A stretch of DNA of 64,000 nt from a bacterium (GTDB lineage Bacteria; Patescibacteriota; Minisyncoccia; Phycocordibacterales; Phycocordibacteraceae). The stretch covers positions 576,001-640,000 of the forward strand of contig JBBCGK010000001.1 in NCBI GenBank assembly GCA_037200965.1. Direction: 5' to 3'. The notes beneath the pieces are model-generated. The model did no database searches. It had not been told where the DNA came from and was given only the letters and a program-made list of their open reading frames with translations. Positions 6,544 to 37,925 of the stretch are shown here, piece after piece (position 1 is the first letter of the stretch; each line of letters opens with the position of its first letter). Made by a program: the position numbers and the translations under genes.

Positions 6544-6546
6544 AGA

Positions 6547-6840
6547 TTAGAAACTCCGGCGCTTTAACGCGCGAAGCAGGTCCGGCCCGTATCCCTGGCT
6601 TCGATGCCGCAGAACCAGGACGATCAGTTCGTCTTTTTTGCACCGGCGGATGGCCCGCCAGTCTCCGACCCGGAGGGAGCGATAGTCCGAAAGCGGGTAC
6701 CCGAGAGGCTTCCCGGGAAGCGCCATGCGCGCATACTGCTGTTCGATAGACGTATGTACGCACTTCCATACCGAAGCGTCGAGACTCCGCGCGTCTTTGG
6801 CAATAACCTCGCTATGATAGCTAACGCGCCACGCGCTCAT
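6547..6840 (-). CDS. type II toxin, RelE/ParE family
   Basis: C-terminal LSDYRSLRVGDWRAIRRCKKDELIVLVLRHRSQGY matches the RelE/ParE core. The start (MSAWRV) lies inside a longer ORF and overlaps the upstream antitoxin by 20 nt. Confidence 0.65.
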   Translation of the reverse strand: MSAWRVSYHSEVIAKDARSLDASVWKCVHTSIEQQYARMALPGKPLGYPLSDYRSLRVGDWRAIRRCKKDELIVLVLRHRSQGYGPDLLRALKRRSF

Positions 6841-7102
6841 CGTGCAATTTGCGCCAGAGCGCGTCTGCCTCGCCCGCGCTGAGGTATTTCGTGCCCGGGG
6901 CGGTACGTTCCTTGAGCATCTTCGCAAGCGCCCGCTGCTCTTTCGGCGTTATATATTCGAATTCTTCTTCCGCAATAGCCGCGTCAAGCATTCTGGCGGC
7001 GATGGTGGCGCGCGGAGTCCGTTCCCGCTTGGCGCGAAGGGAGAGCGCCCGCGCGGTCGACGGCGCGAGTGTCACCAGCATGCGCTCCTTGGTTGTCGCC
7101 AT
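6821..7102 (-). CDS. ribbon-helix-helix-type antitoxin
   Basis: 93-aa protein MATTKERMLVTLAPSTARALSLRAKRERTPRATIAARMLD immediately upstream of, and overlapping, the toxin gene. Confidence 0.55.
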   Translation of the reverse strand: MATTKERMLVTLAPSTARALSLRAKRERTPRATIAARMLDAAIAEEEFEYITPKEQRALAKMLKERTAPGTKYLSAGEADALWRKLHDERVAR

Positions 7103-7145
7103 ATATCAAAAGTGTATCACCTGCTCCGCGCGTGCGCAACCGGAA

Positions 7146-10139
7146 TCACGCCTCGATGATACGTTCCTGTCCGGAATGTCTCATGAGCGCGGGATCGATG
7201 TCGTGCAAGAAGTTCGACGGCTCGGTGATAAAGTCGGCGCCGTAGATGCGGCGGATGCGTGCGAGCGTAAGCACGAGGCGTTTTTTCGCGCGCGTCATCG
7301 CGACATAGAAGAGGCGCCGCTCCTCTTCGTCGTCGTCTTCCTCGTTGCGCTCGTGCGGGAACAACCCTTCTTCAAGTCCGCTTACGAACACCAGATCGAA
7401 CTCGAGTCCTTTCGCCGCGTGCACCGTCATGAGCGTAACGCCCGTCTTCCCTTCAACGCGGTCGAGCTCGTCCTGGTCTCCCGCAAGAGCCGCGTCCGCA
7501 AGGAACGCCGCGATGCCTCCCCGCCCCGGAGTATCGTCGTAGCGCGTCGCCAGAGTAGCGAGCTCCTGGATGTTCTCGAAGCGTTCCTTCTCTTCTTCGT
7601 TTCCGTGCTCGAGTTCGGCCTTAAGCCCGCTCTTCTCGACGACGAGCCGCACGAACTCCGAAGGTGCCGCGCTTTCGGCGCTTCGCGAAAGTTCCCCGAC
7701 TATCGCTTCGAACGCCGCGACTTTCGCCTTCTCGCCCGCCCGGAGCTCGTCGCGCTTTCCTGCCGAAAGTTTCCCGAGCGTCGTCTTGCCGATGCCGCGC
7801 GTTGGCGCCTGCACCGCGCGCATCCGGTCCGCTTCGCGCGAGGGTTCAAGCGAAAGACGCACCCACGCGAGTACGTCTTTCACCTCCTTGCGGTCGTAGA
7901 ACCTCGTACCTAAGAGCTTGTACGAAATCCCTTCGGCAAGGAACGCCTCCTCGAGCGCGCGGGACTGGAAGTTAGTGCGAAACAGAACCGCGATTTCTTC
8001 CGGTGCCGTGCCGTTTCGTATCACGCGTCCCGTCTCGTGCGCGATCCAACGCGCTTCGTCTTCCGCGTTGTCCGCGACGTGGAGCGTGATCGGATCGCCA
8101 GGTGCGTTTTCCGTAACCGAGCGCTTTTCTTTCCGGCGCCGGTTTTTTTCGATCACGGCGTTCGCCGCGGAAACGATCGTCGCCGTCGATCGGTAGTTAT
8201 GCTCGAGCATGATGGTTTTCGCGCTCGGGTAGGTTTCGTCAAACGCGAGCAGGTTGTCTATCGTCGCGCCGCGCCAGCTATAGATGCAATTGTGCGTCGC
8301 GATGCCATTCGCGACGAAATTGTGTGTGCCTTCAATGTCGATGTCGTATACCCGCACTTTCCTTGCGGGGACGCGTTCAACCTTATCTACAAGGTCGTAT
8401 CCTCCCTCGGAATCAAAGACCGCCATGCCCGGCCGTACGCTTGCGGCGGGAAGGAGCGGAAGCGAATTCCCGTCCCTGAGCCTCGCCTTTTTCCCGCCAA
8501 GCCGTGCCGCACGCACGATGCTCGCGCTTGGAAACGCGACGCGAAGGCGTTCGACGCTTTCAAGCAGTGCCCCGTAACTCTTATGGGCGGATTCGAATCG
8601 CCAGCTGGCAGATCCTTTCTTTGCCGGACGCACGGAGAATCCGGCCTTTCGTAAAAGGATGCTGCCTTCCTCGTCGCTACCCACCACCGATATCCTGTGC
8701 ATTGTTGTTTCCCCGCGCCGGTCGCCGCACAACGTTATGTTGATGTTTCGCCGGTCGCTCCGGGTCGCCTGCGCGCGGTGGTGCGGATGCGCAGGAGAAA
8801 GGAAGAGGTCGTCCATAAGTTTCTTCGCACCGGACTCAGTATCGAAAGAAGCGAAGACGGAATCGATCGTTCCTTGATCATGAACGTATCCTCCGGTGCC
8901 GCTCCCCTTGCGCGCGACAAACGGGAGCGTCGGGATACCATATGAAAGGGACAGCTTGTATTCCATCACCCGTGCTGCCCGGGAAGTATCGTGTGTCCCG
9001 AGAACCCACACCGCGTCTCCGTGCTCCTGGTTGCAGCGCTGCTGGAATCCGGCCATAGCCAGGCGCTGTCCGTTCGTATAGGCGCGCGAAACGCCGAGCC
9101 GCCAGCCGACACCGTTTTTTGCCATGAGATACGTAAAATAAAGTTGCGGCATGAGTCCGAGCCGATATCCGGCGAAATGCACGTGTTCTGGCGTGCTCGT
9201 GAGGATCCGTCCCGCGGCCGTGGTTATGCGCACCAATGTGCCAGAGTGCGTCCGCTGCTTAGCGCGAATAACGCGCGCGGCGCGCGTATCGCCGCTTCCG
9301 TAGTTCGACCGAACCTCGTCGCCTATTCGTATCTTCTCGATGTTCCTTTCGGAACCGTCGGCCATTGCCACTTTCGTCCCGGCGACAAGGCATTGATCGA
9401 TATCTCCGACCACAAATACGTTCCCGTGCCGCCTGGAAAGCATGCCGACGAGCGTTCCTTGAAGCGCGTTCGTATCCTGAAACTCGTCAATGTGGAGATA
9501 GTCCCAGCGCTCCTGCGCGAGCGCACGTACGTCCTCATGCTCGCGCAGGAGCCGTACCGGAAGCGAGATGAGATCGTCGAAGTCGAGCGCTTTCTCTTCC
9601 CTCAGCGTTTTCTCATAGCGCAGCCACGCTTCGGCGACGATACGCCCCCCGAAGCTTTTGCGGCCATGCTCGGCATAGAAGCTCTCCGCGGTTTCTCCCG
9701 CTCCCTTGGCCTTCGATATGCGCGACAACACCGCTCTTGGCGAAAGTTCCTTCGTGTCGACATCAAGTTCCTTGAGAGCCTTGCCGATCGCTTTCTGGGA
9801 GTCGTCCCGGTCGAAGATGGTGAAGTGCCTCGGCACGCCGATCTTTGCGCCGTACGACTCGAGAAGCTCGCGGCCGAGCCCGTGGAATGTGGCGATGAAA
9901 GGCGGCCGGCCGCCGTGAAGAAGCCTTGAAAGCCGCTCGCGCATCTCGCGCGCGGCTTTGTTGGTAAAGGTGACGGCGAGGATCTTCTCGGCGGGCACCC
10001 CCTCCTTTATAAGGTGGTAAATCCGGGTGGTAAGCACCTTCGTTTTCCCCGATCCTGCCCCGGCAAGCACCGATACCGGGCCGGCGGTCGCGAGAACCGC
10101 CGCTTTTTGGGCGTCATTAAGGTCTTCGAGGTGGTTCAC
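7146..10139 (-). CDS. UvrD/PcrA-family ATP-dependent DNA helicase, intein-containing
   Basis: Walker A AGAGSGKTKVL and DEFQDT are present. Helicase motif III (VGDIDQ / CIYSWRGA) is split by a 368-aa insertion. C-terminal helicase motifs are intact. Confidence 0.85.
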   Translation of the reverse strand: MNHLEDLNDAQKAAVLATAGPVSVLAGAGSGKTKVLTTRIYHLIKEGVPAEKILAVTFTNKAAREMRERLSRLLHGGRPPFIATFHGLGRELLESYGAKIGVPRHFTIFDRDDSQKAIGKALKELDVDTKELSPRAVLSRISKAKGAGETAESFYAEHGRKSFGGRIVAEAWLRYEKTLREEKALDFDDLISLPVRLLREHEDVRALAQERWDYLHIDEFQDTNALQGTLVGMLSRRHGNVFVVGDIDQCLVAGTKVAMADGSERNIEKIRIGDEVRSNYGSGDTRAARVIRAKQRTHSGTLVRITTAAGRILTSTPEHVHFAGYRLGLMPQLYFTYLMAKNGVGWRLGVSRAYTNGQRLAMAGFQQRCNQEHGDAVWVLGTHDTSRAARVMEYKLSLSYGIPTLPFVARKGSGTGGYVHDQGTIDSVFASFDTESGAKKLMDDLFLSPAHPHHRAQATRSDRRNINITLCGDRRGETTMHRISVVGSDEEGSILLRKAGFSVRPAKKGSASWRFESAHKSYGALLESVERLRVAFPSASIVRAARLGGKKARLRDGNSLPLLPAASVRPGMAVFDSEGGYDLVDKVERVPARKVRVYDIDIEGTHNFVANGIATHNCIYSWRGATIDNLLAFDETYPSAKTIMLEHNYRSTATIVSAANAVIEKNRRRKEKRSVTENAPGDPITLHVADNAEDEARWIAHETGRVIRNGTAPEEIAVLFRTNFQSRALEEAFLAEGISYKLLGTRFYDRKEVKDVLAWVRLSLEPSREADRMRAVQAPTRGIGKTTLGKLSAGKRDELRAGEKAKVAAFEAIVGELSRSAESAAPSEFVRLVVEKSGLKAELEHGNEEEKERFENIQELATLATRYDDTPGRGGIAAFLADAALAGDQDELDRVEGKTGVTLMTVHAAKGLEFDLVFVSGLEEGLFPHERNEEDDDEEERRLFYVAMTRAKKRLVLTLARIRRIYGADFITEPSNFLHDIDPALMRHSGQERIIEA
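8289..9392 (-). other. intein (368 aa) inserted in helicase motif III; Cys1 (CLVAGTKV), terminal HN, +1 Cys
   Basis: N-terminal splicing block CLVAGTKVAMADG...IGDEV and C-terminal block VYDIDIEGTHNFVANGIATHN followed by the extein CIYSWRGA. No LAGLIDADG or HNH motif is recognisable in the central region. Confidence 0.7.
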
Positions 10140-25955: not shown

Positions 25956-26027
25956 GCCCCTGTGGTGAAATGGATATCATTACAGACTTCGAATCTGTCG
26001 TTCCAAGTTCGAATCTTGGCGGGGGCA
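25956..26027 (+). tRNA. tRNA-Arg (anticodon UCG), CCA not encoded
   Basis: Cloverleaf folded by hand: acceptor GCCCCUG/CGGGGGC, anticodon loop CUUCGAA, T-arm CCAAG-UUCGAAU-CUUGG. Confidence 0.8.
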
Positions 26028-26036
26028 CAAAAAGAA

Positions 26037-26059
26037 GCAGGCGGCTCTGGGCCGCCTGC
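26037..26059. terminator. bidirectional hairpin GCAGGCGGC-TCTGG-GCCGCCTGC
   Basis: Perfect 9-bp stem between tRNA-Arg (+) and the end of 26079..26438 (-). Confidence 0.5.
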
Positions 26060-26078
26060 GGGGAAGTTGGTGTAGGGC

Positions 26079-26438
26079 TTATTGTGGTCTCCGGACCAGC
26101 TCGCCCTTCTTGTTGATGTGAAGCTCCGCGATCAGAACTTCGGCGCGGTCGAGAGCCGCATTGATTGCCGACCGGGGATTCGGATGCTTCCCGCTTGCGA
26201 GCTCCTCGTCGGCGTAGCTGTACACGCCTTTGGCGAATTCGAGCGTACCCCGAACCACGCCGTCCGGGGTTTCCGGAGCCGCGGTAACGAGCTTCAGGGC
26301 CGCGAGCTCACCGCGGATTCCGGCGGGAAGGTCCGGCCACTTTCCGTCGATGACCTCTTGATCGAGATCCTCGATGCATCCTTCAAAGAGCTCGTGGGCG
26401 CCGTTCCTGGCGCGCTGGGCAAAACCTGATGGGGGCAT
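26079..26438 (-). CDS. hypothetical protein
   Basis: 119-aa ORF. The minus strand was preferred over the overlapping plus-strand ORF because of the downstream hairpin. Confidence 0.35.
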   Translation of the reverse strand: MPPSGFAQRARNGAHELFEGCIEDLDQEVIDGKWPDLPAGIRGELAALKLVTAAPETPDGVVRGTLEFAKGVYSYADEELASGKHPNPRSAINAALDRAEVLIAELHINKKGELVRRPQ

Positions 26439-26570
26439 GGTCTTCTCCTGTTTCCGTTAGACCTTCTCGGTCCGAGGTTGAGATTACTAAGTATGATTTT
26501 ATAATGCGATTATACTGGCGCTTTTTATATACTTTTGTACTTTTAGTTCAAATAGAGTATCCTCTCGATA

Positions 26571-27374
26571 GTGATATTCAGCCGCACGGAAGACCTCGAA
26601 GACCGTATCATCGAACTCCTCCTTGAGGGTCGTTTGAGTATCAAATCGATGCACGCCCGGCTGGTCTTTCCTGAGAAATCGCTCTCGCTTCGCGCTATTT
26701 ATAAAGCGACGGACAAACTCATCGCGGCGGGCGTGCTCATTAAAACCGGGAAGCGGCTGATGGTGGACGAAGAATGGGCGCGAAGGGTAGGGGAGCGACT
26801 TCGTCCTGTCCCGGTCGCGGCGCCCTCAGTCGGGGAGAAATTTTCCCATACCTTTACATCGATCGAACACCTCGATGCCTTCTGGAAGACAGTGGTCCTC
26901 CCTATTGAGGAATCGGTTCCGAACCCCGAAGTCTTCTTCTACAACCCGCACGATTTCTGGGCATATATGCCCGAGCGCAAGGAAAGCGAGGAGGCGTATT
27001 ATCGGCATTTCGCTAAGGTGGGGCGCCACGGCTTTTTTATCGTAGGAGGGGAGTCTGAGGCGGACAAGGAATTTAAGCGGGAATACCAAGGCGAATACCT
27101 TCAAATAGATACAAGAAATATCCTATCCCTTCGCCGAAGTGACCATGTGACCGTTATAGGCTCTCTTATCGTCACGGTACGGCTCCCTAAGGTATCAGCG
27201 ACGCGGATCGATAAGCTCTATGAATCGAACAGGCCGATAAAGGACACACTTCCCGAGCTTCTCCCCATCTGTCGGGCGTTGGGGAAGATTCGCTTCACCC
27301 TTGAAAACGACCCCTTGAAGGCAAAGAAGCTCAGAAAGCTTCTTGCGAGGAACTTCTATTTTCCGAAAACGTAG
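26571..27374 (+). CDS. uncharacterised winged-helix regulator-like protein, paralog family X (2 of 3)
   Basis: 267 aa, homologous to 12985..13788 and 62739..63554. Confidence 0.55.
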   Translation: MIFSRTEDLEDRIIELLLEGRLSIKSMHARLVFPEKSLSLRAIYKATDKLIAAGVLIKTGKRLMVDEEWARRVGERLRPVPVAAPSVGEKFSHTFTSIEHLDAFWKTVVLPIEESVPNPEVFFYNPHDFWAYMPERKESEEAYYRHFAKVGRHGFFIVGGESEADKEFKREYQGEYLQIDTRNILSLRRSDHVTVIGSLIVTVRLPKVSATRIDKLYESNRPIKDTLPELLPICRALGKIRFTLENDPLKAKKLRKLLARNFYFPKT

Positions 27375-27426
27375 CGGCTGTTAACAATCTTGCGTCATAA
27401 CCGTACTCTCGTCGTAGAGTATATAT

Positions 27427-28128
27427 ATGCGAAAGGATAAAGACAAAGCTTTTGAATTACGCAGGAATGGAAAGAGCTACAGAGAAATCAGGGGCGCCCT
27501 TAAGGTACCAATAAGCACCCTTTCTGGCTGGTTCAGTGAAATTGGATGGTCTAAGAAGATGGCCAGAGATTTAGCAGCAAAGGCCCAGATACAGCACACG
27601 GCCAGGATAATCGAACTCGACAGGATTCGGGGCGTTCATCTGGCTCGGATATACGAGGAAGCGAAGGAAGAAGCCCGGACAGACCTTGAGATTCTCAAAT
27701 ACAACCCCCTCTTTATAGCCGGGCTCATGCTCTATTGGGGCGAAGGAGACAAGACGACGAAAAGTCAGGTGCGGCTCGCGAATACCGACCCGGAATTAAT
27801 CAGACTCTTTGTCGTCTTCTTGAAGAACGTATGCAATATACCCGAGGAGAAAGTGTGGGTCTCCATCCTCACTTATCCGGATATAGACGATGAGGCGAAT
27901 CGGCGTTATTGGTCCCAAGCATCCGGGGTCCCGCTCGATAAGTTCCTCAAAAGCATCCTTATACAGGGCCGCCATAAGACGAAGCGTCTCGGACACGGCG
28001 TCTGCAGCATCTTCGTCTCAAGTACGTACCTGAAGGTGAAGATGATCGAGTGGCTGCGGTTGTTACCGCAGGAATTGATGAACTTGCAATATTATGAGAA
28101 TATAAAGCCCGAGGCGGACATGGTTTAG
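27427..28128 (+). CDS. hypothetical protein with N-terminal HTH
   Basis: Sequence AFELRRNGKSYREIRGALKVPISTLSGWF. Its 3' end overlaps the first 15 nt of tRNA-Gly. Confidence 0.45.
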   Translation: MRKDKDKAFELRRNGKSYREIRGALKVPISTLSGWFSEIGWSKKMARDLAAKAQIQHTARIIELDRIRGVHLARIYEEAKEEARTDLEILKYNPLFIAGLMLYWGEGDKTTKSQVRLANTDPELIRLFVVFLKNVCNIPEEKVWVSILTYPDIDDEANRRYWSQASGVPLDKFLKSILIQGRHKTKRLGHGVCSIFVSSTYLKVKMIEWLRLLPQELMNLQYYENIKPEADMV

Positions 28129-28187
28129 TGGTAAAACAGGATCTTGCCAAGATTCAGTCGGGGGTTCGATTCCCCCTGTCCGCACCA
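28114..28187 (+). tRNA. tRNA-Gly (anticodon GCC), CCA encoded
   Basis: Acceptor GCGGACA/UGUCCGC, anticodon loop UUGCCAA, T-arm GGGGG-UUCGAUU-CCCCC. Confidence 0.85.
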
Positions 28188-28194
28188 GCTTCTT

Positions 28195-28234
28195 GAAGCG
28201 CAAAAACGGCCTTGAATGGCCGTTTTTGCGCTTC
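28195..28234 (+). terminator. rho-independent-like hairpin (17-bp stem GAAGCGCAAAAACGGCC / GGCCGTTTTTGCGCTTC)
   Basis: Perfect inverted repeat immediately 3' of tRNA-Gly. Confidence 0.6.
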
Positions 28235-28394
28235 GGACAAAAGTGGATAAAGGTGTTAATACTGGGGATAAAGGACAATATTTGACGCTCTGTCCACCGC
28301 GATGGTCTGTAGAATTGCAAGCAAATAGGCCCTCATTCTTAAAGCCGTGAGGTCCTCTCGGAAAATGAAGAAAGGACATAAAGGTTTTAGGCGA

Positions 28395-28436
28395 CCAAAA
28401 TGTAAAACACCCCTGACGGGGTGTTTTACATTTTGG
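28395..28436 (-). terminator. 19-bp-stem hairpin CCAAAATGTAAAACACCCC-TGAC-GGGGTGTTTTACATTTTGG overlapping the tRNA-Pro 3' end
   Basis: Perfect inverted repeat directly downstream of tRNA-Pro on the minus strand. Confidence 0.6.
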
Positions 28437-28507
28437 TCGGGGCGCCGGGAATCGAACCCGGTCATCTTGCTCCCAAAGCAAGCGTACTACCGGTATACGA
28501 CGCCCCG
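28434..28507 (-). tRNA. tRNA-Pro (anticodon UGG), CCA encoded
   Basis: Reverse complement folds as acceptor CGGGGCG/CGCCCCG, anticodon loop UUUGGGA (G37), T-arm CCGGG-UUCGAUU-CCCGG. Confidence 0.85.
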
Positions 28508-28603
28508 AGTGCAAGCAGAGTAACACGGGCCCTTAACCCTTGCGACTTTTACATTCTCCGATCAGTGCGGAAAAGCCCCGTAAGTGGTATTCTCGGGAAC
28601 GAA

Positions 28604-28674
28604 GCGGGATTAGTTTAATGGTAGAACATCAGTTTTCCAAACTGATGGCGGGAGTTCGATTCTCCCATCCCGCA
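28604..28674 (+). tRNA. tRNA-Gly (anticodon UCC), CCA not encoded
   Basis: Acceptor GCGGGAU/AUCCCGC, anticodon stem UCAGU/ACUGA with loop UUUCCAA, T-arm GGGAG-UUCGAUU-CUCCC. Confidence 0.75.
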
Positions 28675-28810
28675 CAGCGGTCAGAGACCCGTTTTTCGTC
28701 TGCGAGGCCTCGAAAATAGTTCGCAACCGCGAGGCCTGCCCGGTCGAGCTTTAGTGTTCCGCATCCGTTCCGTCTAAATTAAACCGACCCGGCAAGCTAT
28801 ACTTACCTCT

Positions 28811-29347
28811 ATGTCCCACGAGGTCCCGAAACTCAATCAGAGCGAATCTAAGGAAAAGCCGCCTGTTCTGTACCATGGAACAGCGAACGGTGATATCAAG
28901 GAGTTTGAACCACGTTCCGCGGCAGAAAGACCCGATGAAGAACCGGCGGTGTATGCATCTCCTGATCGTGAGATCGCCATTCAATCAATGGCGAATAAAT
29001 TCGTGACAAACGGCGGTATCGTAAATGGGCGTAAATTCGTATGTATTCCCATGACCCGTGAAGAATTTATAGAACAGGATCACGGTGGCACGGTGTATAG
29101 CTTCCCCAGCGATTCCTTCGAAATAAATAAAGGAATCGGACTTGGCGATAAGGAATGGGTTTCTAGAACTACTGTTAAACCCCGTGGGTTAGAGCGGTTC
29201 CCTTCGCTATTAGCAGCAATGCTCAAACAAGGAACCGAGGTTTATTTTATTAAACCCGAAATGGTCTCGGTAATTAGTAAAGCTCAAGATAGTGACCCTG
29301 AAGAATTAGAGAGGCTTCTTGGGGGTCTTGAACGGGCAGAGTCTTGA
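28811..29347 (+). CDS. hypothetical protein (island cargo)
   Basis: 178-aa ORF with no recognisable motif. Confidence 0.45.
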   Translation: MSHEVPKLNQSESKEKPPVLYHGTANGDIKEFEPRSAAERPDEEPAVYASPDREIAIQSMANKFVTNGGIVNGRKFVCIPMTREEFIEQDHGGTVYSFPSDSFEINKGIGLGDKEWVSRTTVKPRGLERFPSLLAAMLKQGTEVYFIKPEMVSVISKAQDSDPEELERLLGGLERAES

Positions 29348-29478
29348 ATCGCGTCCGACCCCATCATTTTGACCTTTCCCAAATTCGCCGTGGAGCCTCG
29401 CGGTGCCACACATGCTGTGGTTTTCATCCGTCCACGCCCGTTCACGCACAAAAGCCCGACATTCGTCGGGCTTTTGTG

Positions 29479-30804
29479 CTAGTCGGCCAGCGTGATGATT
29501 CGGTCGTTGAGAATAAGCCGATCTCTGAGGTGCTCCAGCAGCTCCCGCTTTTCCTCTCTCGTGCCGTTCTTCAGCAGATACTTGGCATACTTGCGTATGT
29601 CCATCTCCTTGGCCTCGATGGTTTCTTTGGTGCCCTCCACCTCCGCCCGCAGCTTGTTGTATCGGGACACCTCCCGCTCAATGAGGTGTCGCGCCCCGAT
29701 CTCGTCAAGGGAGATGCGGTCTATCATGGTGGCGAGCTGGTCGAGTACTTTCTCCTCCCGCAGATACGGGTTCTTGCACTGGGTATCCTTGGCCCGGGAG
29801 CAGGAATAATACACATAGGAGACGGGCTCGCCGGTACTCAATATCTTCTGCTTCTCCTGTGCCGTTATGCCGCTCCCGCAGTACCCGCACAGCAGGAGCT
29901 TGGTGAAGTTCCATTCTTTGAAGCGGTGCTTGGGGCGGTTCTCCTCGGCGATCTTTTCCTGCACGGCTTGGAAGAGTTCCTGGGTGATAAGCGGCGTATG
30001 TTTGCCGGTATACCAGTTTCCCGAGCCTCTCGGATACTCGAACACGCCGCAATAGAAGGGGTTCTTGAGCATTTTGTATAGCGTCGAGAGATTCATGCTC
30101 TTGCCGATGCGCGAGGCGAACTGCACATCCCTCTTCAGCCACCCGTGTACCTTGCGGCCGCTCCAGCGCTCGATCCCGACTTTCTCGAAGACCTGTTTAA
30201 TGATTGGCGCTCTAATAGGGTCCACCAATATCTCGCAGCGGTGATCCTTCCGAGAATCGTTGAGGTATCCCGTGGGCGCGATGCCGGGCCACAGGCCCAT
30301 CTCGGCCCTTGCACGTAGCCCGCGCTTCACATTGATGCGCTTGTTATCGTTCTCAAGCTTCGCTTGGCTCCCAAGAATCATCAGCAAGAACTTCTCGTTC
30401 GGGTTGTTGCCGAACCGCTGCCCATATGTGCGTATGTCCACCAAGTGCCTGCTATCCATTAAGTCCACGATGCGGCCGAGGTCGCCTGCGTTGCGACTGA
30501 TGCGGTCCGGTGCCCAGGTTAAGATGCCGTTGAACTTTCCAGCCCTCAATTCGTCTACGATTTCATTGAATACCGGTCGCGCTCCGGCCTCCTTGGCCGA
30601 GTGCGACTCTCGCTTCACCTCGACAATCTCCAATTTCTCTTTCTCTGCGAGCGCCAACATCTCCTTGACCTGGCTCTCGATGCTCAAAACTTGCTGCTCC
30701 TCGCTCTCTGTACTTTTCCTCGCATACAAGCAGTACCGCACCGCCTGTACCTCCACCAAGGGAGGAGCCGCCCCAAATCCGCCCTGAATCATTGCTGTTT
30801 CCAT
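29479..30804 (-). CDS. large serine recombinase (resolvase-type catalytic domain + recombinase domain + zinc ribbon + coiled coil)
   Basis: Catalytic motif [16 protein letters not shown], a recombinase domain, CGYCGS...[12 protein letters not shown], and a long C-terminal coiled coil. Confidence 0.85.
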
Positions 30805-30902
30805 ACATTTGCCGTTATTGCTAACGGGTCAATGGATGACGCAACCCCTCGTGGGTGTCCAGCGAGGGGTTGTTGGTATCTAATGCGGAATTTAGTACCT
30901 TG

Positions 30903-31934
30903 TTATTTTCTCTTCCCTGGTTTTCTCACAGGCTCGGCGTGAGGGAACTTCTCAAAGTGATCGATGACGGCTTCCTCTTTTGCAACTTGTTCTGACGCAG
31001 TACGTTTGCGCTCTTCATCCTCCTTCTCGCGGCGAGTCACCGCTTCGCGCTCCTCATCTTCCCGAATACGTTCACGCTCCTTCGCCTCGATTTCCCCAAG
31101 AACCTCGGTTGCGATTTTAAGCTCGTGTTCGTCGCCAAATTTTCGTATGTGCTCAAGCGCATCCTGGGCATACTGCTCATCCAGTAAACTTAGATATAGA
31201 CGGAATTTCGCGGGATATTCTCGCAGGGAGGACTCAACTTCTTCGGCAGAGTAGAATTGGTCACCCAAGCGGTATTCACTCGGATGTTCGCGAATAAACG
31301 CCGCGACCTCTTCGATTCTTGCCTTCGGAATAAGAACACCCGAAGCGACCAGCCCGATTTCGTGGTATGTGCTGCCGTCCTGGAAATTCGCAGTCGGGAG
31401 ATCTAATGCTTTTGCGAGCGCCTCCTCTCGATCTTGGCGAATAGGGCCGTCCCTGCGAGGCAGAGCGGGGCGACGGCTCCATCCATCGCCGATGCTCTTA
31501 TCAAGAAAATCAAAAACAAGAAGCGCGTTTTCACCCAAGATCCCGCCGTCCTCATGTTCGGATGGAAAGAATCTATCGCGATTTTGCATGAGCCTTCCGT
31601 CAGGCAGGTCCTCACTGGATATGATCGTGAATTCTGGGAGGCCAAGCTCTTCGAGACTTCCTTCCTGCCGTAACAGGTCTATGAGAACATCGTGGTCACT
31701 TTTGCCTAAGTCCTTGCCGAGCGCATTTAACTCAAGATGTGTATTGTGCCGCTCAGAGTCTATGAGTTCCGCTTCCGTTTTCACTTCTGGGTCGGTGAGA
31801 GCGTGCGCGTTCTGCTTGCGAAATCGCTTAAGCTCCTTGAACTTGTCTTGATACGAACGAACAAGACGGCCATACTTTTTCTGAGCGGTTTCCTGTGATT
31901 CGGGCCGTGGGCCAGCACCTTCAAATCCGGACAT
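30903..31934 (-). CDS. hypothetical protein with charged E/K/R-rich C-terminus (island cargo)
   Basis: 343-aa ORF. Confidence 0.45.
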   Translation of the reverse strand: MSGFEGAGPRPESQETAQKKYGRLVRSYQDKFKELKRFRKQNAHALTDPEVKTEAELIDSERHNTHLELNALGKDLGKSDHDVLIDLLRQEGSLEELGLPEFTIISSEDLPDGRLMQNRDRFFPSEHEDGGILGENALLVFDFLDKSIGDGWSRRPALPRRDGPIRQDREEALAKALDLPTANFQDGSTYHEIGLVASGVLIPKARIEEVAAFIREHPSEYRLGDQFYSAEEVESSLREYPAKFRLYLSLLDEQYAQDALEHIRKFGDEHELKIATEVLGEIEAKERERIREDEEREAVTRREKEDEERKRTASEQVAKEEAVIDHFEKFPHAEPVRKPGKRK

Positions 31935-32019
31935 ATAGACATCATACTATGACAAATGAAAAGCCGTCCTCAAACGACTTTTCGTTAGAGAACGGCTTTG
32001 GCCTGTTAGAGCTTTTGCC

Positions 32020-32304
32020 CTACTGGGAGGCCGACGCGCGGCCTGCCATGAAGAGTTTCAGGAGGAGCTCTTCGGCGCCATTTTTTCTATGCAGGTTGGC
32101 ATCAATCGCCAACCAGAGCACGCCCGAAATGGCGGCAATTGCCAGGTCGTCCTCGTCGAGATCGACGTATCCAACGACCTCTTCGGTGCCACCACTTTCC
32201 GTAATCATCCGACGCGCTTCTTCGATGTCGTCGACGTTGCAGATGGCCGCTCCGAATCCTTCATCGGCTTTCGCGCCGACCTGACGAGTGAATACGATAC
32301 CCAT
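32020..32304 (-). CDS. hypothetical small acidic protein
   Basis: 94 aa from the internal ATG (MGIVFTRQVGAKADEGFGAAICNVDDIEEA...). The longer upstream extension overlaps the neighbouring gene out of frame. Confidence 0.3.
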   Translation of the reverse strand: MGIVFTRQVGAKADEGFGAAICNVDDIEEARRMITESGGTEEVVGYVDLDEDDLAIAAISGVLWLAIDANLHRKNGAEELLLKLFMAGRASASQ

Positions 32305-32458
32305 AGATCTTCTCCCTAGCTGGATGCCCGTAAATGGGCGACAAATTGACTGTTTTCTATAGTAGCATGTAGCACATATACTGTCAAGGGTCATGCGCCT
32401 GGATTCTATATCAAAAGCCCCACACCGGATTGTGTGGGGCTGTAGCGGACGGATTGTG

Positions 32459-32923
32459 CTAGGCGTGGTGTCTCCGTTGGTTGAGCAGCACGAGGCCGCC
32501 GAAGAAGAAACCGATTCCGAGCGGAAGGTCCGCGAGGAAGTTGAGGAACCAGTTGCGCCAGGGAGCGGTGCTCCCGCCCGTATGCACCGCAGATATCGCG
32601 GCGAAGACCAGAGTGGCCATGGGCCACAGAAACATCCAATCGCGATCCGGCCCCCGGAAACTCGTGGGATGATACACACCCTCCCTCAAGAAGAGGAGGC
32701 CAGTAATCGCGCAGAGTGCACTCAGCCCGCACATCAGGGCTTCGAGTTTGCGATCGTCGTCCCCAATCCTTCCGCCCGCCGCCATCGTGCAGAGGACGGT
32801 GACGGTCAGGGCGACGCCGATACCGACGCCGATGCGCTGGGTAAACAGGGCGATTGCCCCGCCGACCAGAAGCTGGGCGAGCAGGATGCCCGCGTTCCAG
32901 TACCAATTTCTCAATGTCGTCAT
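32459..32923 (-). CDS. hypothetical 4-TM membrane protein
   Basis: 154-aa ORF with four hydrophobic helices. Confidence 0.45.
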   Translation of the reverse strand: MTTLRNWYWNAGILLAQLLVGGAIALFTQRIGVGIGVALTVTVLCTMAAGGRIGDDDRKLEALMCGLSALCAITGLLFLREGVYHPTSFRGPDRDWMFLWPMATLVFAAISAVHTGGSTAPWRNWFLNFLADLPLGIGFFFGGLVLLNQRRHHA

Positions 32924-33014
32924 GTTTGTGGCCCTCCTTAGGCCATTTGTGCTACCGTACGCAGTATTACATATCTACTTAGGAAGTCAAGGATTGCATG
33001 GCGACCCCGAATTC

Positions 33015-33539
33015 TAGGCATTTGTAGGCATTTCGCGGCCTGCCGTATGAGTGTCTAATGTGTCTAATCGGCACCTACCGAAAGTGACAGTGCGCTGTCA
33101 CTCTTTACGCCTAATTTCCTCTAAGATACCCAGCATCTGCGGTCTGGTTCTCTGAAAATGTTACGCGCCCGTACATGCCGTATTCGTGTAACATTTGTAA
33201 CATTTTGCCCTCCGGCATTGGACACGCCTGCGGGGGTATCTAACGTCCTTGCAACCCCAAAATGCAACATGCCACAAACGCCGTTTTGACGTTGCATTCT
33301 ATATCATTTTGACCCCCGACCCCCTGTCAGATTTGTAAGGTAACAGTCCACTTTCCGAACACTCGGGATAGCCCTTTTCGTGTTCGGTTTGTTCGCTTTT
33401 CCAGTCCGCAACCGCGAGGCCCACGCTCGCCACTCGTGAGACACACCCAAAACGCTAGAATACCTTGCAACTGCTTGCTGGAATCGCTAAAACGAGACAG
33501 TGTCCGATATACCCTACCTGTGTCTCATTTGTCTCATTT
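33015..33539. repeat. noncoding region with four short tandem duplications (TAGGCATTTG x2, GTGTCTAAT x2, GTAACATTT x2, TGTCTCATT x2) plus palindromes
   Basis: Tandem units at 33015-33033, 33051-33068, 33188-33206 and 33521-33539. Perfect palindrome AGTGACAG-TGCG-CTGTCACT at 33083-33102. Inverted repeat AATGCAAC...GTTGCATT at 33261-33298. Confidence 0.6.
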
Positions 33540-33770
33540 TGTACCCGACCCCGAGGCCTCGATCGGGGTTAGCGGCTACTCGCCAAAGGGCGTTGCGTTT
33601 GCCTCGCCTGGCCCAGTTCAGTACAGTGAGGGGGCACACTCTAGTGCTAGTTCAAGTGACCGAGGTGCATAAAGAAAAACCGCCTCTTGCGAAGCGGTTT
33701 AAGGTTGCGCCCTATCTTTATCCTGCCCAGCGCGGCAGTTCGATTTTTGGTTCTGTTGCCAAGCGGGTTT

Positions 33771-34532
33771 TCATCCCGCTCCGTTAATCTCCAAGAGCTC
33801 GCTCTCTAGTTCCCTAGCTATATGTGGCCAAGCCTCTTCCACGACTCCCGTTAATAGTCCGACGCGTTCTAAGTCGCGCACCATCGTTTCAACAGGGATA
33901 CTGAAGAAAAGACGACCTGATTTAGCGTAGTAACAAGGATGCGCTTCTGGGTCATGGCGATCTAGGATGTTCCATCCCTTAGTGGGACGATAACAATCTA
34001 AGATTTCCACCGTGCATTGTGGGAAGAGTTCCCCTAGCCATGCACGAAGACTCTCGCATCCCAATTCGGGATTACCGCGGAAGGGCTCATGATCTCCAAA
34101 GTGGGAAGTCCAGAGAGAAACGACCTTAGGCTCGCCGATCTTGTCGGCAACCATGCGAGCCACCTTTTGAAAGATAGCTTTCGTTTCTTCCAACCCGATA
34201 TCATGGGTCGACTTTTCTCCAAAGAGAGAGGCCGAAATCCCCCGAGCGATCAGCTGATCCAACCCACCGAAACGGAACTGTTTGGCGGATAGAAACAGAT
34301 CGCTCTTGCAGGTAAGGTCGGGGAGCCAATAGGAAGCCTCCTTTGCCTCCGTTTCCATATTGTCGCGGTCACGGAAGATACCTTGAAATCCACGAGGATA
34401 GGATTTCTCCCTCACCTCGTACCCAGCTATCTTCAATGTCTCCAGGATGCGTGGGACATACGCCTCGAATACATCGTTCGAGCGGTAAGTAACAAGTACG
34501 GTCTTAGTCATATGGTTGCCCTCCTGAGGCAT
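33771..34532 (-). CDS. hypothetical protein
   Basis: 253-aa ORF. The start may instead be the internal MTKTVLV. Confidence 0.45.
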   Translation of the reverse strand: MPQEGNHMTKTVLVTYRSNDVFEAYVPRILETLKIAGYEVREKSYPRGFQGIFRDRDNMETEAKEASYWLPDLTCKSDLFLSAKQFRFGGLDQLIARGISASLFGEKSTHDIGLEETKAIFQKVARMVADKIGEPKVVSLWTSHFGDHEPFRGNPELGCESLRAWLGELFPQCTVEILDCYRPTKGWNILDRHDPEAHPCYYAKSGRLFFSIPVETMVRDLERVGLLTGVVEEAWPHIARELESELLEINGAG

Positions 34533-34660
34533 GCGCCGAAGCGCGATAAAGCGAACTTGATTTCTGAGATTAGTGTAGCGCAGTATTGTATAAAGTCAAG
34601 TAGTCTTGACGACCAAATATATGACCTATATGCTATGTAAATAAAGGCTATTTAATACCT

Positions 34661-35434
34661 ATGTCAATAATTCTTGACCAAACGGATAGCAAGGAGTTGA
34701 TTGAAGGGCTTGAGACGCTGGGCCTGAACGCTAAGGAGGCACAGGTCTATCTGGCCCTTTTGCCCCGTCGGGACGTCGGTTCCTCGAAGATTGTCCTTGC
34801 GACAGGCCTTCATAAGCAGTTCGTATACAATGCAATCGAAAAACTGGAGCAATTAGGCCTCATAAAGCATGTCATACAGAACGGCCGGAAGAAGTTCAGT
34901 GCCAATCCGCCGAGTCGTCTCCTCTCTATCGTGGAAGAGAAGCGCCTTGCCGCTCAAAACATGGCGAAGCGCCTCCAGGAACGCTTTATCGGCGCGCATG
35001 AGCAGGATTTCGAAGTGTTCCAAGGAGATTCGGCCGTACTTGCCCACCATTACGATATGTTCGAACGCATCGAACAGGACCAGGAAGCGCTCGTGATATC
35101 GGGACCCACCGAGACATTCCTTAAGATTATCGGCCCGGACGAGAAGGATGTATTCGAGGAAACGCGCGTAGCGAAAGGCCTTCGCATCCGCTATCTGGGT
35201 ATGGAATCGATGCGCGAACGGCTCATCGAGACGAAAAAATGGCGCAAGCTCTTCGATTACCGCATCCTGCCGGGCGGACAATCGACCGGCCAGCTCGATA
35301 TCGATATCTGGCCGAACAACGTCACGTACAACCTTTTCGGTGATCCTCTGCTCTCCATCACGATTACGAACAAAGCGATGACCGATGGATACCGGGAGTT
35401 CTTCGAGTCGCTGTGGAAGCTCTCGAAACCATAA
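34661..35434 (+). CDS. TrmB-family transcriptional regulator
   Basis: Sequence LGLNAKEAQVYLALLPRRDVGSSKIVLATGLHKQFVYNAIEKLEQLGLI. A TTGACG-17-TATGCT promoter-like element lies upstream. Confidence 0.75.
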   Translation: MSIILDQTDSKELIEGLETLGLNAKEAQVYLALLPRRDVGSSKIVLATGLHKQFVYNAIEKLEQLGLIKHVIQNGRKKFSANPPSRLLSIVEEKRLAAQNMAKRLQERFIGAHEQDFEVFQGDSAVLAHHYDMFERIEQDQEALVISGPTETFLKIIGPDEKDVFEETRVAKGLRIRYLGMESMRERLIETKKWRKLFDYRILPGGQSTGQLDIDIWPNNVTYNLFGDPLLSITITNKAMTDGYREFFESLWKLSKP

Positions 35435-35599
35435 AAGAAGTGCTAGACCGAGATGCCTCAGCTTTGGTCTGAGGAATTCGCCAAGGAACCTTTGAAATGC
35501 CTCACTCGGTGCAGTTCACGACTGGGGTGGGGCACAGTTAGAGATTTCGAGTCCGCAGATCTCGAAGAAGTCCTGAAAATCCAAGCCAGGATAGAGATT

Positions 35600-36160
35600 T
35601 AATACCCCAATTCCCCGCGGCTCTGCCGCGGGGTACCGCTAAGGAGGGTTCGGGAACCGTTGGTTCCCGAGATACAATACGCGCATGGCCGTCGTCCGTT
35701 CGAACCACTGCGCCTTCGACACCCACTACCACATCGTCTTTCCGGTCAAATACCGCAAAGCACTCCTGACACCTGTCGTCACCAAGGCAATTCGGGATAT
35801 CGCTGGCGATATAGCCGAACGGTACGACATCGTCTTCGAGCAGCTCGGTACCGACCAGAACCATATCCATATACTGTGCTCCTTCCATCCCAAATACAGC
35901 GGGGGAGATGTCGTACGGATGTTCAAGTCCATCACCGCAAAACAGCTGTTTGAGCGATTTCCCGAATTGAAGAAGGACCTCTGGGGCGGAGAGTTCTGGG
36001 CAGACGGCTACTATATCGCCACCGTCTCCACACACGGCGACTGGACCACGGTCGAACGCTATGTCGCTAACCAAGGAAAGACGAGCGGACAACCAACCCA
36101 ACTCACGATTCTCTGACGGCCATGCACGACTCAATACCCCGGGGCTCTGCCCCGGGGTTG
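35600..36160. mobile_element. IS200/IS605-family element (tnpA only) bounded by subterminal GC hairpins
   Basis: Left hairpin CCCCGCGG-CTCTG-CCGCGGGG (35613-35633). Right hairpin CCCCGGGG-CTCTG-CCCCGGGG (36137-36157). Both are preceded by AATACCCC. Confidence 0.7.
35685..36116 (+). CDS. tnpA: IS200/IS605 family HUH (Y1) transposase TnpA
   Basis: Motifs HYHIVFPVKYRK and NHIHIL. Confidence 0.85.
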   Translation: MAVVRSNHCAFDTHYHIVFPVKYRKALLTPVVTKAIRDIAGDIAERYDIVFEQLGTDQNHIHILCSFHPKYSGGDVVRMFKSITAKQLFERFPELKKDLWGGEFWADGYYIATVSTHGDWTTVERYVANQGKTSGQPTQLTIL

Positions 36161-36201
36161 TTTATTAGCGATTTCCGCATAGGTTAGCAGCTTTTCAAAC
36201 G

Positions 36202-36231
36202 CAAAACAGCCAGCGTACGCTGGCTGTTTTG
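36202..36231. terminator. hairpin CAAAACAGCCAGCG-TA-CGCTGGCTGTTTTG
   Basis: Perfect 14-bp stem downstream of 36248..36661 (-). Confidence 0.6.
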
Positions 36232-36247
36232 CTCGTCTCGCTCCAGA

Positions 36248-36661
36248 TTAGAGTGGAACGTCGGCCGAAGGCGAGATTGCCGTACCGGTCGCGGCAATGT
36301 TCACCACGCCGCTGTGGAGAGCGAGCCCGGTGGCGGCTACCAGCGCTTCCGAGGCGTTCGCCGCGACGACCGTCTTCACGTCGCCGTTCACGTTTATGTA
36401 TTGATACGTGCCTGACGGGTAGTTGGCATCCGTCGTCGTTCCGCCGGGGAGCGACGCGCTATCGCCTGCGTTCAAGAAGCCCATATCAAGCACCACACCA
36501 CTATGCGGAGCGATATTGATCGCCTGCGCGAGCGCCTGCTCGGCGTTTGCCGCGTTGGTGTCCTGTATTTCCCCGCTCGTGTTCACGTAGTGGTATGTGG
36601 CTGCAAGCGAAGCGGTGGGGAGCGCAAGCAGCATTACGGCAAGAAGGAGTATTTTCGTCAT
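36248..36661 (-). CDS. small secreted protein with two internal ~45-aa tandem repeats
   Basis: Signal peptide MTKILLLAVMLLALPTASLA. Repeat units YHYVNTSGEIQDTNAANAEQALAQAINIAPHSGVV and YQYINVNGDVKTVVAANASEALVAATGLALHSGVV. Confidence 0.55.
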   Translation of the reverse strand: MTKILLLAVMLLALPTASLAATYHYVNTSGEIQDTNAANAEQALAQAINIAPHSGVVLDMGFLNAGDSASLPGGTTTDANYPSGTYQYINVNGDVKTVVAANASEALVAATGLALHSGVVNIAATGTAISPSADVPL

Positions 36662-36785
36662 AGATTCATTCTTTCATCATGCCTTATTTGGTAATATCCC
36701 GGCGTCAGTATCCCATTTTCCTCATGAAGGGGGCGTGAGGGTCTTTGCTCACTTTATATATAAGTAAGAAGCGTACAATAGAGAT

Positions 36786-37925
36786 ATGGAACCCCTCGCC
36801 GCCCGCATACGCCCGAAAAACCTTGATGATGTGAGAGGGCAAGAGCACTTGGTAGGTCCTGGAAAGCCGCTCCGGGTCGCCATTGAGAAAAAGCATCTCT
36901 TCTCTTTCATCCTCTGGGGCCCGCCCGGGACAGGAAAGACCACTATCGCCCGCATTTACGCCCGCGCGCTCGACGCCGAGCTCTTTGAGCTCTCGGCAGT
37001 CTCGGCGGGAAAGGAGGATATACGGAAGATAGTGGGGAATGGGAAGAAAACGCTCGGTTTTGATAAACCGAAAGTTCTCTTTCTCGACGAGATACACCGT
37101 TTCAACAAGTCGCAGCAGGATTTCCTCCTCCCGTATGTCGAAAGCGGTGAGCTCACCTTGATCGGCGCGACGACGGAGAACCCGAGCTTTGAAGTGATCC
37201 CGGCACTCCTCTCAAGGGCCCGCGTGTTCGTTCTCGAACCACTTTCGGAGGGGTCTCTCAAAGCAATTGTGAAAAGCACCAAGATTAAGGTGCCAAAGGA
37301 TGCGTTTGATTGGCTTTTAGGCTACGCAAACGGCGACGCGCGCCGGGTGCTCGGGATGCTTGAGGGAGCCGAAAAGCTGTACGGTAATATCACGGTCGAG
37401 AATCTCAATAAAGCGCTCGAGTCTCCGCACCTGCGCTACGACAAGAAGGGCGAAGAGCACTACGACACCATCTCCGCGTTCATAAAATCCATGCGCGCTT
37501 CGCAGCCTGATGCTGCACTCTACTATCTCGCGCGCATGGTCGAAGCCGGGGAAGACCCGCTCTTTATCGCAAGGAGGATGGTAGTCTTCGCGTCGGAAGA
37601 CGTAGGGCTTGCCGTGCCGACCGCACTCGTGGTCGCGAATGCGGTATTCCGCGCATGCGAAACGATCGGGTATCCCGAATGCGCCATAAACCTCGCGCAC
37701 GGCGTCGCGTATCTCGCCGAGTGCAAGAAAAGCCGGAAGAGCTACGATGCATACTTTGAAGCGGTAGCGGATGTGCAGAAGCTCGGCAATCTTCCGGTGC
37801 CGATGAAGATCCGAAACGCGCCCACCAAGCTCATGAAGAACCTGGGATACCACAAGGGCTACAAGCTCTACGACGAGGAGTCGTATCTGCCGGAAAAGCT
37901 TAAGAAGAGGAAGTATTTGAACTGA
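36786..37925 (+). CDS. rarA: replication-associated recombination protein A (AAA+ ATPase RarA/MgsA)
   Basis: Motifs [10 protein letters not shown] and [14 protein letters not shown]. Confidence 0.9.

Follow-up and report, generated by a model that had tools for sequence, protein, structure and literature searches.

A 4,962-bp large serine recombinase element at the 3' end of tRNA-Gly(UCC) in a member of the Patescibacteria

Large serine recombinases mobilize elements such as phiC31, Bxb1, A118, SPbeta and SCC (Ccr). These recombinases have three domains, the integrase gene is located at the edge of the element, and only few base pairs are common to attL and attR. The typical attP of large serine recombinases is roughly 50 bp long; attP and attB (about 40–50 bp) have imperfect dyad symmetry around a 2-bp crossover. 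The insertion site of SCC is the extreme 3' end of rlmH, a conserved housekeeping gene that is left intact. The tRNA islands of tyrosine integrases (Islander/TIGER) insert at the 3' end of tRNA genes, preserve the tRNA, carry variable cargo including defence genes, and use one hotspot repeatedly. The filamentous phage phiRSM, with a small, resolvase-like enzyme, integrates at a tRNA-Ser gene. The phiRSM-type serine recombinase acts as a site-specific integrase (cited in PMC7192596). Sites in tRNA or tmRNA genes were found for 14 of 297 serine-integrase islands versus 44.5% for tyrosine integrases (Mageeney et al. 2020, PMC7192596), and tRNA use by serine integrases "has not been reported previously" and needs experimental proof (PMC7192596). 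Tycheposons are small cargo-carrying elements at the tRNA genes of the streamlined Prochlorococcus genomes; in 27 of 937, the place of the tyrosine recombinase is taken by a large serine recombinase (Hackl et al., bioRxiv 10.1101/2020.12.28.424599). Here we describe an element in a 64,000-nucleotide stretch of a Patescibacteria genome (positions 576,001 to 640,000 of contig JBBCGK010000001.1, assembly GCA_037200965.1), which is called the window. Positions 28676–33637 of the window form a 4,962-bp integrative element directly after tRNA-Gly(UCC), very probably mobilized by its own large serine recombinase. It is a serine-integrase island whose target is the discriminator/CCA boundary of tRNA genes, and it belongs to a large family in Patescibacteria.

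The element shares with other large serine recombinase elements the three-domain recombinase, the gene position at one edge and the very short sequence common to both junctions, and it resembles SCC in sparing the gene at whose end it is inserted. It differs from them in its target, since the family uses the ends of tRNA genes and many different tRNAs, and in its size, since family members are very small (2.9–10 kb). Its arms of about 70 and 300 nt with repeated T-arm-like motifs are also unlike the usual attP, and no dyad symmetry as in classical serine-integrase sites could be detected in its att sites. Sequence similarity to known enzymes of this kind is distant: the recombinase scored 104 bits against NCBIfam CcrB (cut-off 900) and 52.8 against CcrA (cut-off 700), and is thus not a Ccr orthologue by this test. 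The 3' tRNA insertion, the preserved tRNA, the variable cargo and the repeated use of a hotspot are shared with tyrosine-integrase tRNA islands. In contrast to them, no tyrosine integrase is present (no match to Pfam Phage_integrase, PF00589, in any of the five open reading frames (ORFs) of the element), only GCAC(A) is found instead of a 15–60-bp tRNA duplicate, and the crossover is placed at the discriminator/CCA boundary and not inside the anticodon or T-loop. Tycheposons belong to another phylum, and the replication genes that many of them carry are absent here, where the recombinase is the sole conserved gene; the junctions and arms of the present family are not known to be common to tycheposons. 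Unlike the phiRSM enzyme, the present recombinase has the Recombinase and zinc-ribbon domains.

About 95 recombinase loci were fetched for comparison. Loci and contigs are referred to by L numbers, and L180 is the closest relative. The comparison with about 100 related loci gave the span of the element. In the window, L180, L085 and L088, the sequence common to both junctions is GCAC(A) alone (4–5 bp), which fits serine and not tyrosine integrases. On the tRNA side, the tRNA end ...[G/T]CAC is directly followed by the conserved arm AGCRGTCAG... in 12 of the 13 aligned loci whose recombinase is at least 70% identical, the exception being L099. This near arm (P') begins with AGCGGTCAGAGACCCGTTTTT, a terminator-like hairpin with a T-run (terminator-like prediction at 28676–28693), followed by the palindrome CGAGGCCTCG (28703–28712) and a 19-bp repeat (R1); its consensus in close relatives is AGCRGTCAG..TTTT..GCGAGGCCTCG..AGTTCGCAACCGCGAGG. 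The same arm lies beside tRNA-Gly(UCC), tRNA-Gly(GCC), tRNA-Gly(CCC) and tRNA-Glu(UUC) in different loci. Because about 68 nt are identical next to four tRNA species, the arm belongs to the element and not to the chromosome. On the other side, the homology of the far arm (P) stops sharply after GAGGGGGCAC / CAGTYCRNWACWGYGAGGGGGCAC in the window, L180, L085, L086 and L088, and the sequence beyond this boundary is unrelated from locus to locus in the five elements. The P arm holds the second 19-bp repeat (R2), an invariant TGCTTGCTGGAATC block, GAGACA with two copies of GTCTCATTT, the hairpin CCCCGAGGCCTCGATCGGGG and a degenerate third repeat copy (R3). Its end resembles the T-arm and acceptor 3' end of a tRNA and is not a copy of tRNA-Gly. 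The recombinase, the 68-nt near arm and the far arm of roughly 300 nt are all that homologous elements have in common.

The tRNA-Gly(UCC) gene is the last in a cluster with the order tRNA-Arg(UCG), tRNA-Gly(GCC), tRNA-Pro(UGG, minus strand) and tRNA-Gly(UCC) (ARAGORN, Rfam), and these four tRNAs were the only Rfam matches at the gathering threshold. About 20 relatives have the common order CCA-adding enzyme, tRNA-Arg, tRNA-Gly(GCC), tRNA-Pro, tRNA-Gly(UCC), RarA. The distance from tRNA-Gly(UCC) to RarA is 29 bp in L014 and L018, 17 bp in L019 and 8.1 kb in the window, where RarA (36786–37925) has its best relatives (77–83% identical) in metagenome-assembled genomes (MAGs) of Paceibacterota, Kaiserbacteria-like and other Patescibacteria. 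No homologue of the recombinase block was found at the tRNA-Gly(UCC)–RarA locus in the 17 related Paceibacterota genomes compared, which have the same tRNA cluster. A preliminary description of this DNA had proposed that a large serine recombinase, together with cargo, forms an integrated element beside the tRNA, and had suggested a comparison with uninterrupted tRNA-to-downstream junctions. Such junctions exist in relatives, the block is not conserved at identical junctions, and the 19-bp motif is kept at homologous positions of related elements, all in agreement with that proposal.

The closest relative carries the element at another tRNA gene. In L180, the element (2,883 bp, other cargo) is located at tRNA-Gly(GCC) while tRNA-Gly(UCC) is unoccupied, and L085 is arranged in the same way, with its element at tRNA-Gly(GCC). 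The attR of L180 reads gggCAC followed by CAGCTATTTGC...GGGGATAAAGCTGTGCACAATGGGGATAAAGGACA, and the unoccupied tRNA-Gly(GCC) of the window reads ccgCAC followed by CAGCTTCTTG...GTGGATAAAGGTGTTAATACTGGGGATAAAGGACA. From the position of the displaced "CA", part of the CCA encoded by the gene, the exchange maps within GCAC. The attR flanks of L180 and L085 (CAGCT.../TGCTTC..., then GGATAAAG..GGGGATAAAGGACA) are also found after the unoccupied tRNA-Gly(GCC) of the window and L088. Likewise, the attR flank of the window, ACTCTAGTGCTAGTTCAAGTGA (ACTCTAG..TTCAAG.GA), matches ACTCTAGTTCAAGCGA right after the unoccupied tRNA-Gly(UCC) of L013, where 0.13% of the control windows score as high or higher; the tRNA-Gly(UCC) trailer of L003 also starts with ACTCT. 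The recombinases of the window and L180 are 95.7% identical, whereas identity is 75% for the CCA-adding enzyme, 83% for RarA and 70% for a third protein of the flanks. One protein cluster at 90% identity contains elements at tRNA-Gly(UCC), tRNA-Gly(GCC) and tRNA-Gly(CCC). The high recombinase identity and the differing tRNA sites are not the pattern of vertical inheritance at a fixed locus.

The recombinase has Resolvase (PF00239, residues 26–171, 1.6e-21), Recombinase (PF07508, 197–287, 5.7e-13) and Zn_ribbon_recom (PF13408, 300–360, 5.1e-9) domains, all above the Pfam gathering scores. Its reading frame is full length, and the serine-recombinase motifs Y-x-R-x-S-T...Q and D-R-x-S-R, as read off the translation, appear to be present at residues 27–37 and in PDRISRN (99–105). 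The nearest solved structure is the SPbeta integrase (E=1.5e-14). More than 8000 homologues were found, more than 100 of them at 60–91% identity; wherever a source is named for these, it is a Patescibacteria lineage. No other protein is conserved throughout the element family. The association with tRNA genes is general. The nearest downstream tRNA is convergent with the recombinase gene in all 57 non-redundant loci having one, and 96 tRNAs were counted downstream versus 11 upstream in similar amounts of sequence. The tRNA 3' end is at most 135 nt from the recombinase stop codon in 11 of the 12 loci at 70% identity or more. Recombinases 86–96% identical to that of the window adjoin tRNA-Gly(UCC), Gly(GCC), Gly(CCC) and Glu(UUC), those 70–76% identical adjoin Arg, Ile and Leu tRNAs, and those about 60% identical adjoin mostly Ser tRNAs. 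Beside recombinases of the last group, a tRNA-Ser with anticodon ACT was called by ARAGORN at eight loci (L111, L120, L122, L123, L127, L130, L138 and L161). This anticodon is unusual in bacteria; the call could be wrong, or the site of integration could hold an odd tRNA. Some distant members (60% identity) are on contigs with a terminase-like gene (L167).

A mechanism can be proposed in which the recombinase would join the attP of the element to the chromosomal attB. The attP would consist of the far arm, ending in tRNA-like ...AGTTC-N18-GCAC, and then the near arm, starting with AGCGGTCAG. The attP junction on the excised circle would read ...CAGTACAGTGAGGGGGCAC / AGCGGTCAGAGACCCG, and the empty attB junction ...TCTCCCATCCCGCAC / ACTCTAGTGCTAGTTC. 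The left half of attB would be the T-arm and acceptor end of the tRNA gene; at tRNA-Gly(UCC) this B half-site comprises the T-arm and acceptor 3' strand, the discriminator A and C74. Strand exchange would presumably occur at a dinucleotide within GCAC, which covers acceptor C72, discriminator A73 and C74. The mature tRNA would be kept whole through C74 and CCA would be added by the CCA-adding enzyme encoded nearby, while the trailer of the tRNA would be swapped for the T-rich, terminator-like sequence of the element and the old trailer would end 5 kb away at attR. The degenerate R3 would form the far-arm half-site; the distance from its AGTTC to GCAC is that of the T-loop AGTTC in a tRNA. Because the far-arm end aligns with the tRNA 3' half, one recombinase subunit surface could read both the left half-site and the tRNA. 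It is a tentative and rather unlikely extension of this mechanism that the family reads mainly one half-site, the tRNA T-arm and acceptor end mimicked by the far arm, with little dependence on the downstream sequence. If true, any tRNA gene ending in ...CAC would be a potential landing pad and new copies may stack by old ones. The T-arm-like repeats could then bind extra recombinase subunits in a resolvase-style accessory complex, which is undescribed for large serine recombinases, and the family would be a main cause of multi-slot hotspots, and perhaps of single-tRNA inversions, in the tRNA clusters of Patescibacteria.

Several observations weigh against mobilization by the recombinase in this way. 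An excised circle, an attP junction or an empty site in the same population was not found; the free attP pattern GAGGGGGCACAGCRGTCAG had no match in IMG/VR, and IMG/VR contained only three recombinase relatives, all distant. Excision by serine integrases is controlled by a separate directionality factor; none could be recognized here, sister elements have no small ORF in common, and factors of this class are too diverse for recognition by sequence. The best dyad scores of the reconstructed sites (10–12 of 24 for attP and 9–15 for attB) were not above the shuffled maxima (median 11, 95th percentile 13), with an off-centre match in the L085 attB as the sole exception; weak symmetry could have escaped. 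The four right halves of attB that were seen are unrelated to each other, contrary to the prediction from canonical recognition of four half-sites. The match to the L013 trailer spans about 25 nt only and is modestly significant given the 17 relatives tested. Finally, the tandem arrangement in L086, and probably L170, is not expected from strict attP x attB recombination; it could result from sequential integrations stacked next to the tRNA. There (L086, 8076–8293; probably also L170, about 6922–6950, reverse complement), a P-core-P' junction of GAGGGGGCAC and AGCAGTCAGAGACCCG is followed by a recombinase 3'-end fragment, which looks like what is left of an older copy of the element, in tandem with an intact copy.

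The preliminary description had taken the 19-bp repeats as possible attL/attR remnants bounding the element. The repeat itself was correctly described: AGTTCGCAACCGCGAGGCC at R1 recurs at R2 with one mismatch, and no further match exists in the window when up to 2 mismatches are allowed (shuffle expectation 0.01). The accompanying caution that its length alone is within chance was fair, since by our estimate 64 kb of sequence would contain about 0.4 direct repeats with 18/19 identity. R1 and R2 were found at the same positions and in the same orientation in every homologous element with arms available (L180, L170, L085, L086 and L088), a tRNA-proximal copy was also found in L082, L087, L092, L174, L177 and L178, and the motif at up to 2 mismatches occurs nowhere else in the fetched loci, 2.2 Mb in all. 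This recurrence at fixed positions indicates that the motif is not due to chance. An element of about 28718–33421, excised by recombination between the repeats, would agree with two direct, 18/19 identical copies that bracket all five genes and are kept in sister elements, and R1 and R2 agree at positions 11–12 within the window, L085 and L088. However, these positions disagree in L180 and L086, so this co-variation was rejected as a sign of exchange. Moreover, both repeats lie within the element arms: the homology runs 42 nt past R1 to the tRNA and 216 nt past R2 to 33637, and the empty sites lack the whole 28676–33637 block, both outer arm segments included. Such repeats are neither needed nor created by serine recombinases. 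Excision between the repeats is therefore very improbable. They are copies of a T-arm-like motif at fixed arm positions and most likely serve as extra recombinase-binding or accessory sites. The R2–R3 spacing in six elements (202, 212, 212, 222, 222 and 223 nt) changes in steps of about one helical turn, a weak hint of phased protein binding, with only three independent spacing classes.

Two other explanations concern the element as a whole. It could be a resident recombinase module that is no longer mobile, domesticated or decaying beside the tRNAs, with the variability caused by other processes. The missing circular form in IMG/VR, the missing directionality factor and the insertion that separates R1 from the recombinase gene would be explained in this way, and the flank past the element is also variable DNA. 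A relic is nevertheless improbable, because the recombinase frame and, it appears, its motifs are kept, neither arm is damaged, at 87% nucleotide identity to L180, and a recombinase much closer to its L180 counterpart than the housekeeping proteins are, at another tRNA, belongs to one cluster spread over three tRNA-Gly genes. The enzyme is presumably active at present and would catalyse the integration itself. Alternatively, the whole 8.1 kb from tRNA-Gly(UCC) to RarA (28676–36785) could be a composite island that arrived as a unit, since the tRNA directly abuts RarA in L014, L018 and L019 and the extra 3.1 kb also encodes accessory proteins (a 253-aa protein, a TrmB-like regulator, an IS200/IS605 transposase and a 137-aa ORF). 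This is hardly credible: the conserved far arm stops at 33637 with the same GAGGGGGCAC end as four other elements, the 25 nt after it correspond to the native trailer of the tRNA in L013, and nothing past 33637 is common to any recombinase locus.

An iteron region had been said to follow the genes. The noncoding stretch stands, as 32924–33770 (847 bp) contains no credible ORF, and most of it (32924–33637) is part of the element and not of the DNA beyond. Five 9-mer words, each as two tandem copies, occur in 33016–33541 (AGGCATTT, GTGTCTAAT, GTAACATTT, GTTCGNTTT and GTCTCATTT), the last three with an inverted copy upstream. AGGCATTT is located at 33016–33033, GTGTCTAAT at 33051–33068 and GTAACATTT at 33188–33205, with the inverted copy of the latter at 33156–33164; the GTAACATTT pair is also present in L085, L086 and L158. 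Promoter-like sites on the minus strand were found at 33330–33303 and 32990–32963, and 32924–33338 is probably the promoter/operator region of the minus-strand cargo operon. As a sign of an iteron replicon, Rep, primase and helicase families were looked for, and none matched an ORF of the element. A plasmid origin was rejected, as there is no Rep gene and no conserved protein besides the recombinase; a Rep-like protein is absent from all members. A search of 32900–33800 against Rfam gave nothing at E<=1. RNAalifold gave a weak consensus on the far arm (covariation term -1.5). The GTCTC word is GTCCC in all three copies in L085 and L086. An RNA structure of the far arm was rejected, because the sole clean covariation (GAGACA/GTCTC to GGGACA/GTCCC) hits all three copies of the repeated word, and protein-binding sites fit this change at least as well as an RNA helix. 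A T-arm-like 14-mer at 33732–33745 was also rejected as a displaced tRNA fragment; it is 95 nt outside the conserved arm, in a terminator-like hairpin. We read 32924–33637 as promoter, operators and recombination arm, and not as a replication origin.

The five genes after tRNA-Gly(UCC) are as first described, with ORFs of 178, 441, 343, 94 and 154 aa. The cargo and recombinase genes are all read from the far arm toward the tRNA, and the 178-aa DUF6886-like gene is on the plus strand. The central part of the element serves as a free slot for cargo, here filled by three proteins with almost no detectable relatives. The 343-aa protein had no Pfam, PHROG, PADLOC or NCBIfam match and one homologue (31% identical) among 5.8 billion proteins. 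The 94-aa protein had no PHROG, PADLOC or NCBIfam match and no homology to small ORFs of sister elements, and the 154-aa protein had no Pfam, PHROG, PADLOC or NCBIfam match and no homologues in other recombinase loci. Phage structural or packaging genes were not seen, as no cargo ORF had a PHROG match. The cargo is wholly different between sister elements: Cas1 with a 98-aa ORF in L177–L179, giant surface proteins (one of 1,484 aa with a peptidoglycan-binding domain, also in L177–L179, and one of 1,281 aa with Ig-like and peptidoglycan-binding domains in L174), pilin-like N_methyl proteins in L086 and L170, and type I restriction-modification with a ThsB-like TIR protein in L169. Cas1 and the 98-aa ORF (L177, 604–1967; L178, 8490–9838; L179, 2978–4326) adjoin a recombinase of about 89% identity at tRNA-Gly(CCC), and CRISPR adaptation genes may be cargo of this element type. 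A further cargo, a diversity-generating retroelement (bAvd and reverse transcriptase), is located just upstream of an 88%-identical recombinase in L082, L083 and L084 (about 6288–7698).

The DUF6886-like gene lies in a lineage-specific insertion on the P' side. By blastn, window 28597–28734 corresponds to L086 11507–11369 and window 29439–30881 to L086 11366–9921, two segments that are adjacent in L086 and in L180 as well. The recombinase stop codon and the tRNA end are 100–125 nt apart in all but one of 12 close relatives, and 803 nt apart in the window because of this 702-bp insertion. The DUF6886 match is weak (Pfam, E=2.5e-7), and the protein has 281 cluster representatives among 1.84 billion proteins. 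The hairpin at the recombinase stop codon is found in all close relatives (94% identical in L085) and is probably a bidirectional terminator. On the other side of the gene, the conserved 77-nt region is presumed to contain its promoter and ribosome-binding site. The coordinates of all features are collected in Table 1.

The surroundings of the element are variable as well. Each spacer of the tRNA cluster (window 25956–28675, compared with L002–L025) varies among relatives, from about 40 bp to 7 kb, which makes the whole cluster an insertion hotspot. Single tRNA genes are inverted in some genomes: the window, L002 and L016 have tRNA-Pro on the minus strand, L003 and L022 have an inverted Gly(GCC), and in L016 and L019 both Gly(GCC) and Arg are inverted. 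A 233-aa ORF (27427–28128) overlaps the first 15 nt of tRNA-Gly(GCC) (28114–28187); this ORF and one of 267 aa (26571–27374) are found again in several relatives, within or next to the tRNA cluster or the gene of the CCA-adding enzyme. Accessory DNA of 3.1 kb (33638–36785) separates the element from RarA. Its 253-aa ORF matches only itself among 5.8 billion proteins, and it also holds the TrmB-like regulator (34661–35434), the IS200/IS605 Y1 transposase (35685–36116), which is followed by GC-rich hairpins at about 36139–36159 and 36205–36232, and the 137-aa ORF. Homologue searches with the 253-aa protein and with the 343-aa cargo protein yielded no closer genome in which an empty site could be compared. 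GC content and skew across 20–42 kb showed no clear change at the element. RarA of L085 (141–1283) is in three pieces in different frames, a pseudogene or a MAG assembly error. Independent short-read assemblies of this element type stop in or just before the tRNA gene (L001, Logan SRR28211700; L174–L176): L001 ends at about window position 28616 and L174 ends 29 nt ahead of the near arm. These breaks could reflect branching of the assembly graph there or heterogeneous occupancy within the population.

Table 1. Coordinates of the element, its sites and its genes in the window
Feature	Position	Strand	Basis or remark
tRNA-Gly(UCC)	28604–28675	+	ARAGORN; Rfam 75.6 bits; gene stays intact
attL core GCAC(A)	28672–28676		Last acceptor bases, discriminator and C74 of the tRNA
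tRNA-proximal element arm P', 68 nt	28676–28743	+	Conserved across loci
R1, first 19-bp repeat	28718–28736	+	Always starts 43 nt past the core
Lineage-specific insertion inside P' side	28737–29438	+	Carries the DUF6886-like gene, 28811–29347 (+)
Perfect 15-bp-stem hairpin at recombinase stop codon	29446–29479		Inverted repeat
Large serine recombinase, 441 aa	29479–30804	-	Pfam
Conserved 77-nt region upstream of recombinase gene	30805–30881	-	Nucleotide homology with L082, L085, L086 reaches 30881
Cargo ORF, 343 aa, charged C-terminal tail	30903–31934	-	No family match
Cargo ORF, 94 aa, acidic	32020–32304	-	Gene call on Logan contig L001
Cargo ORF, 154 aa, hydrophobic	32459–32923	-	Predicted from the translation to span the membrane
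Element-specific noncoding region	32924–33338		Tandem 9-mer word pairs
Far element arm P	33339–33637	+	Conserved; 87% identity over 284 nt with L180; aligns with L085, L086, L088
R2, second 19-bp repeat	33403–33421	+	Most invariant P-arm block
R3, degenerate third copy AGTTCAGTACAGTGAGGGG	33615–33633	+	Abuts the core
attR core GCAC(A)	33634–33638		Comparison of element ends
Displaced original tRNA trailer (B')	33638–33670	+	ACTCTAGTGCTAGTTCAAGTGA...; match to L013

A description of this family was not found in the literature on Patescibacteria/Candidate Phyla Radiation, of which our coverage was incomplete. Apparently, it is a large and undescribed family in Patescibacteria that inserts at the ends of many tRNA genes with changing cargo. 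The family provides dozens of natural attL/attR pairs with exact junctions for a tRNA use by serine integrases that was so far only predicted, and rarely. Genome engineering could also benefit from an enzyme whose landing site is the universally conserved end of tRNA genes and which leaves these genes undamaged. Patescibacteria have tiny genomes and no well-understood routes of gene exchange, and the element is a compact, delimited vehicle of 3–10 kb, which we infer to pass from cell to cell. The recombinase identity of 95.7% against 70–83% for housekeeping proteins indicates that this element type moves between lineages.

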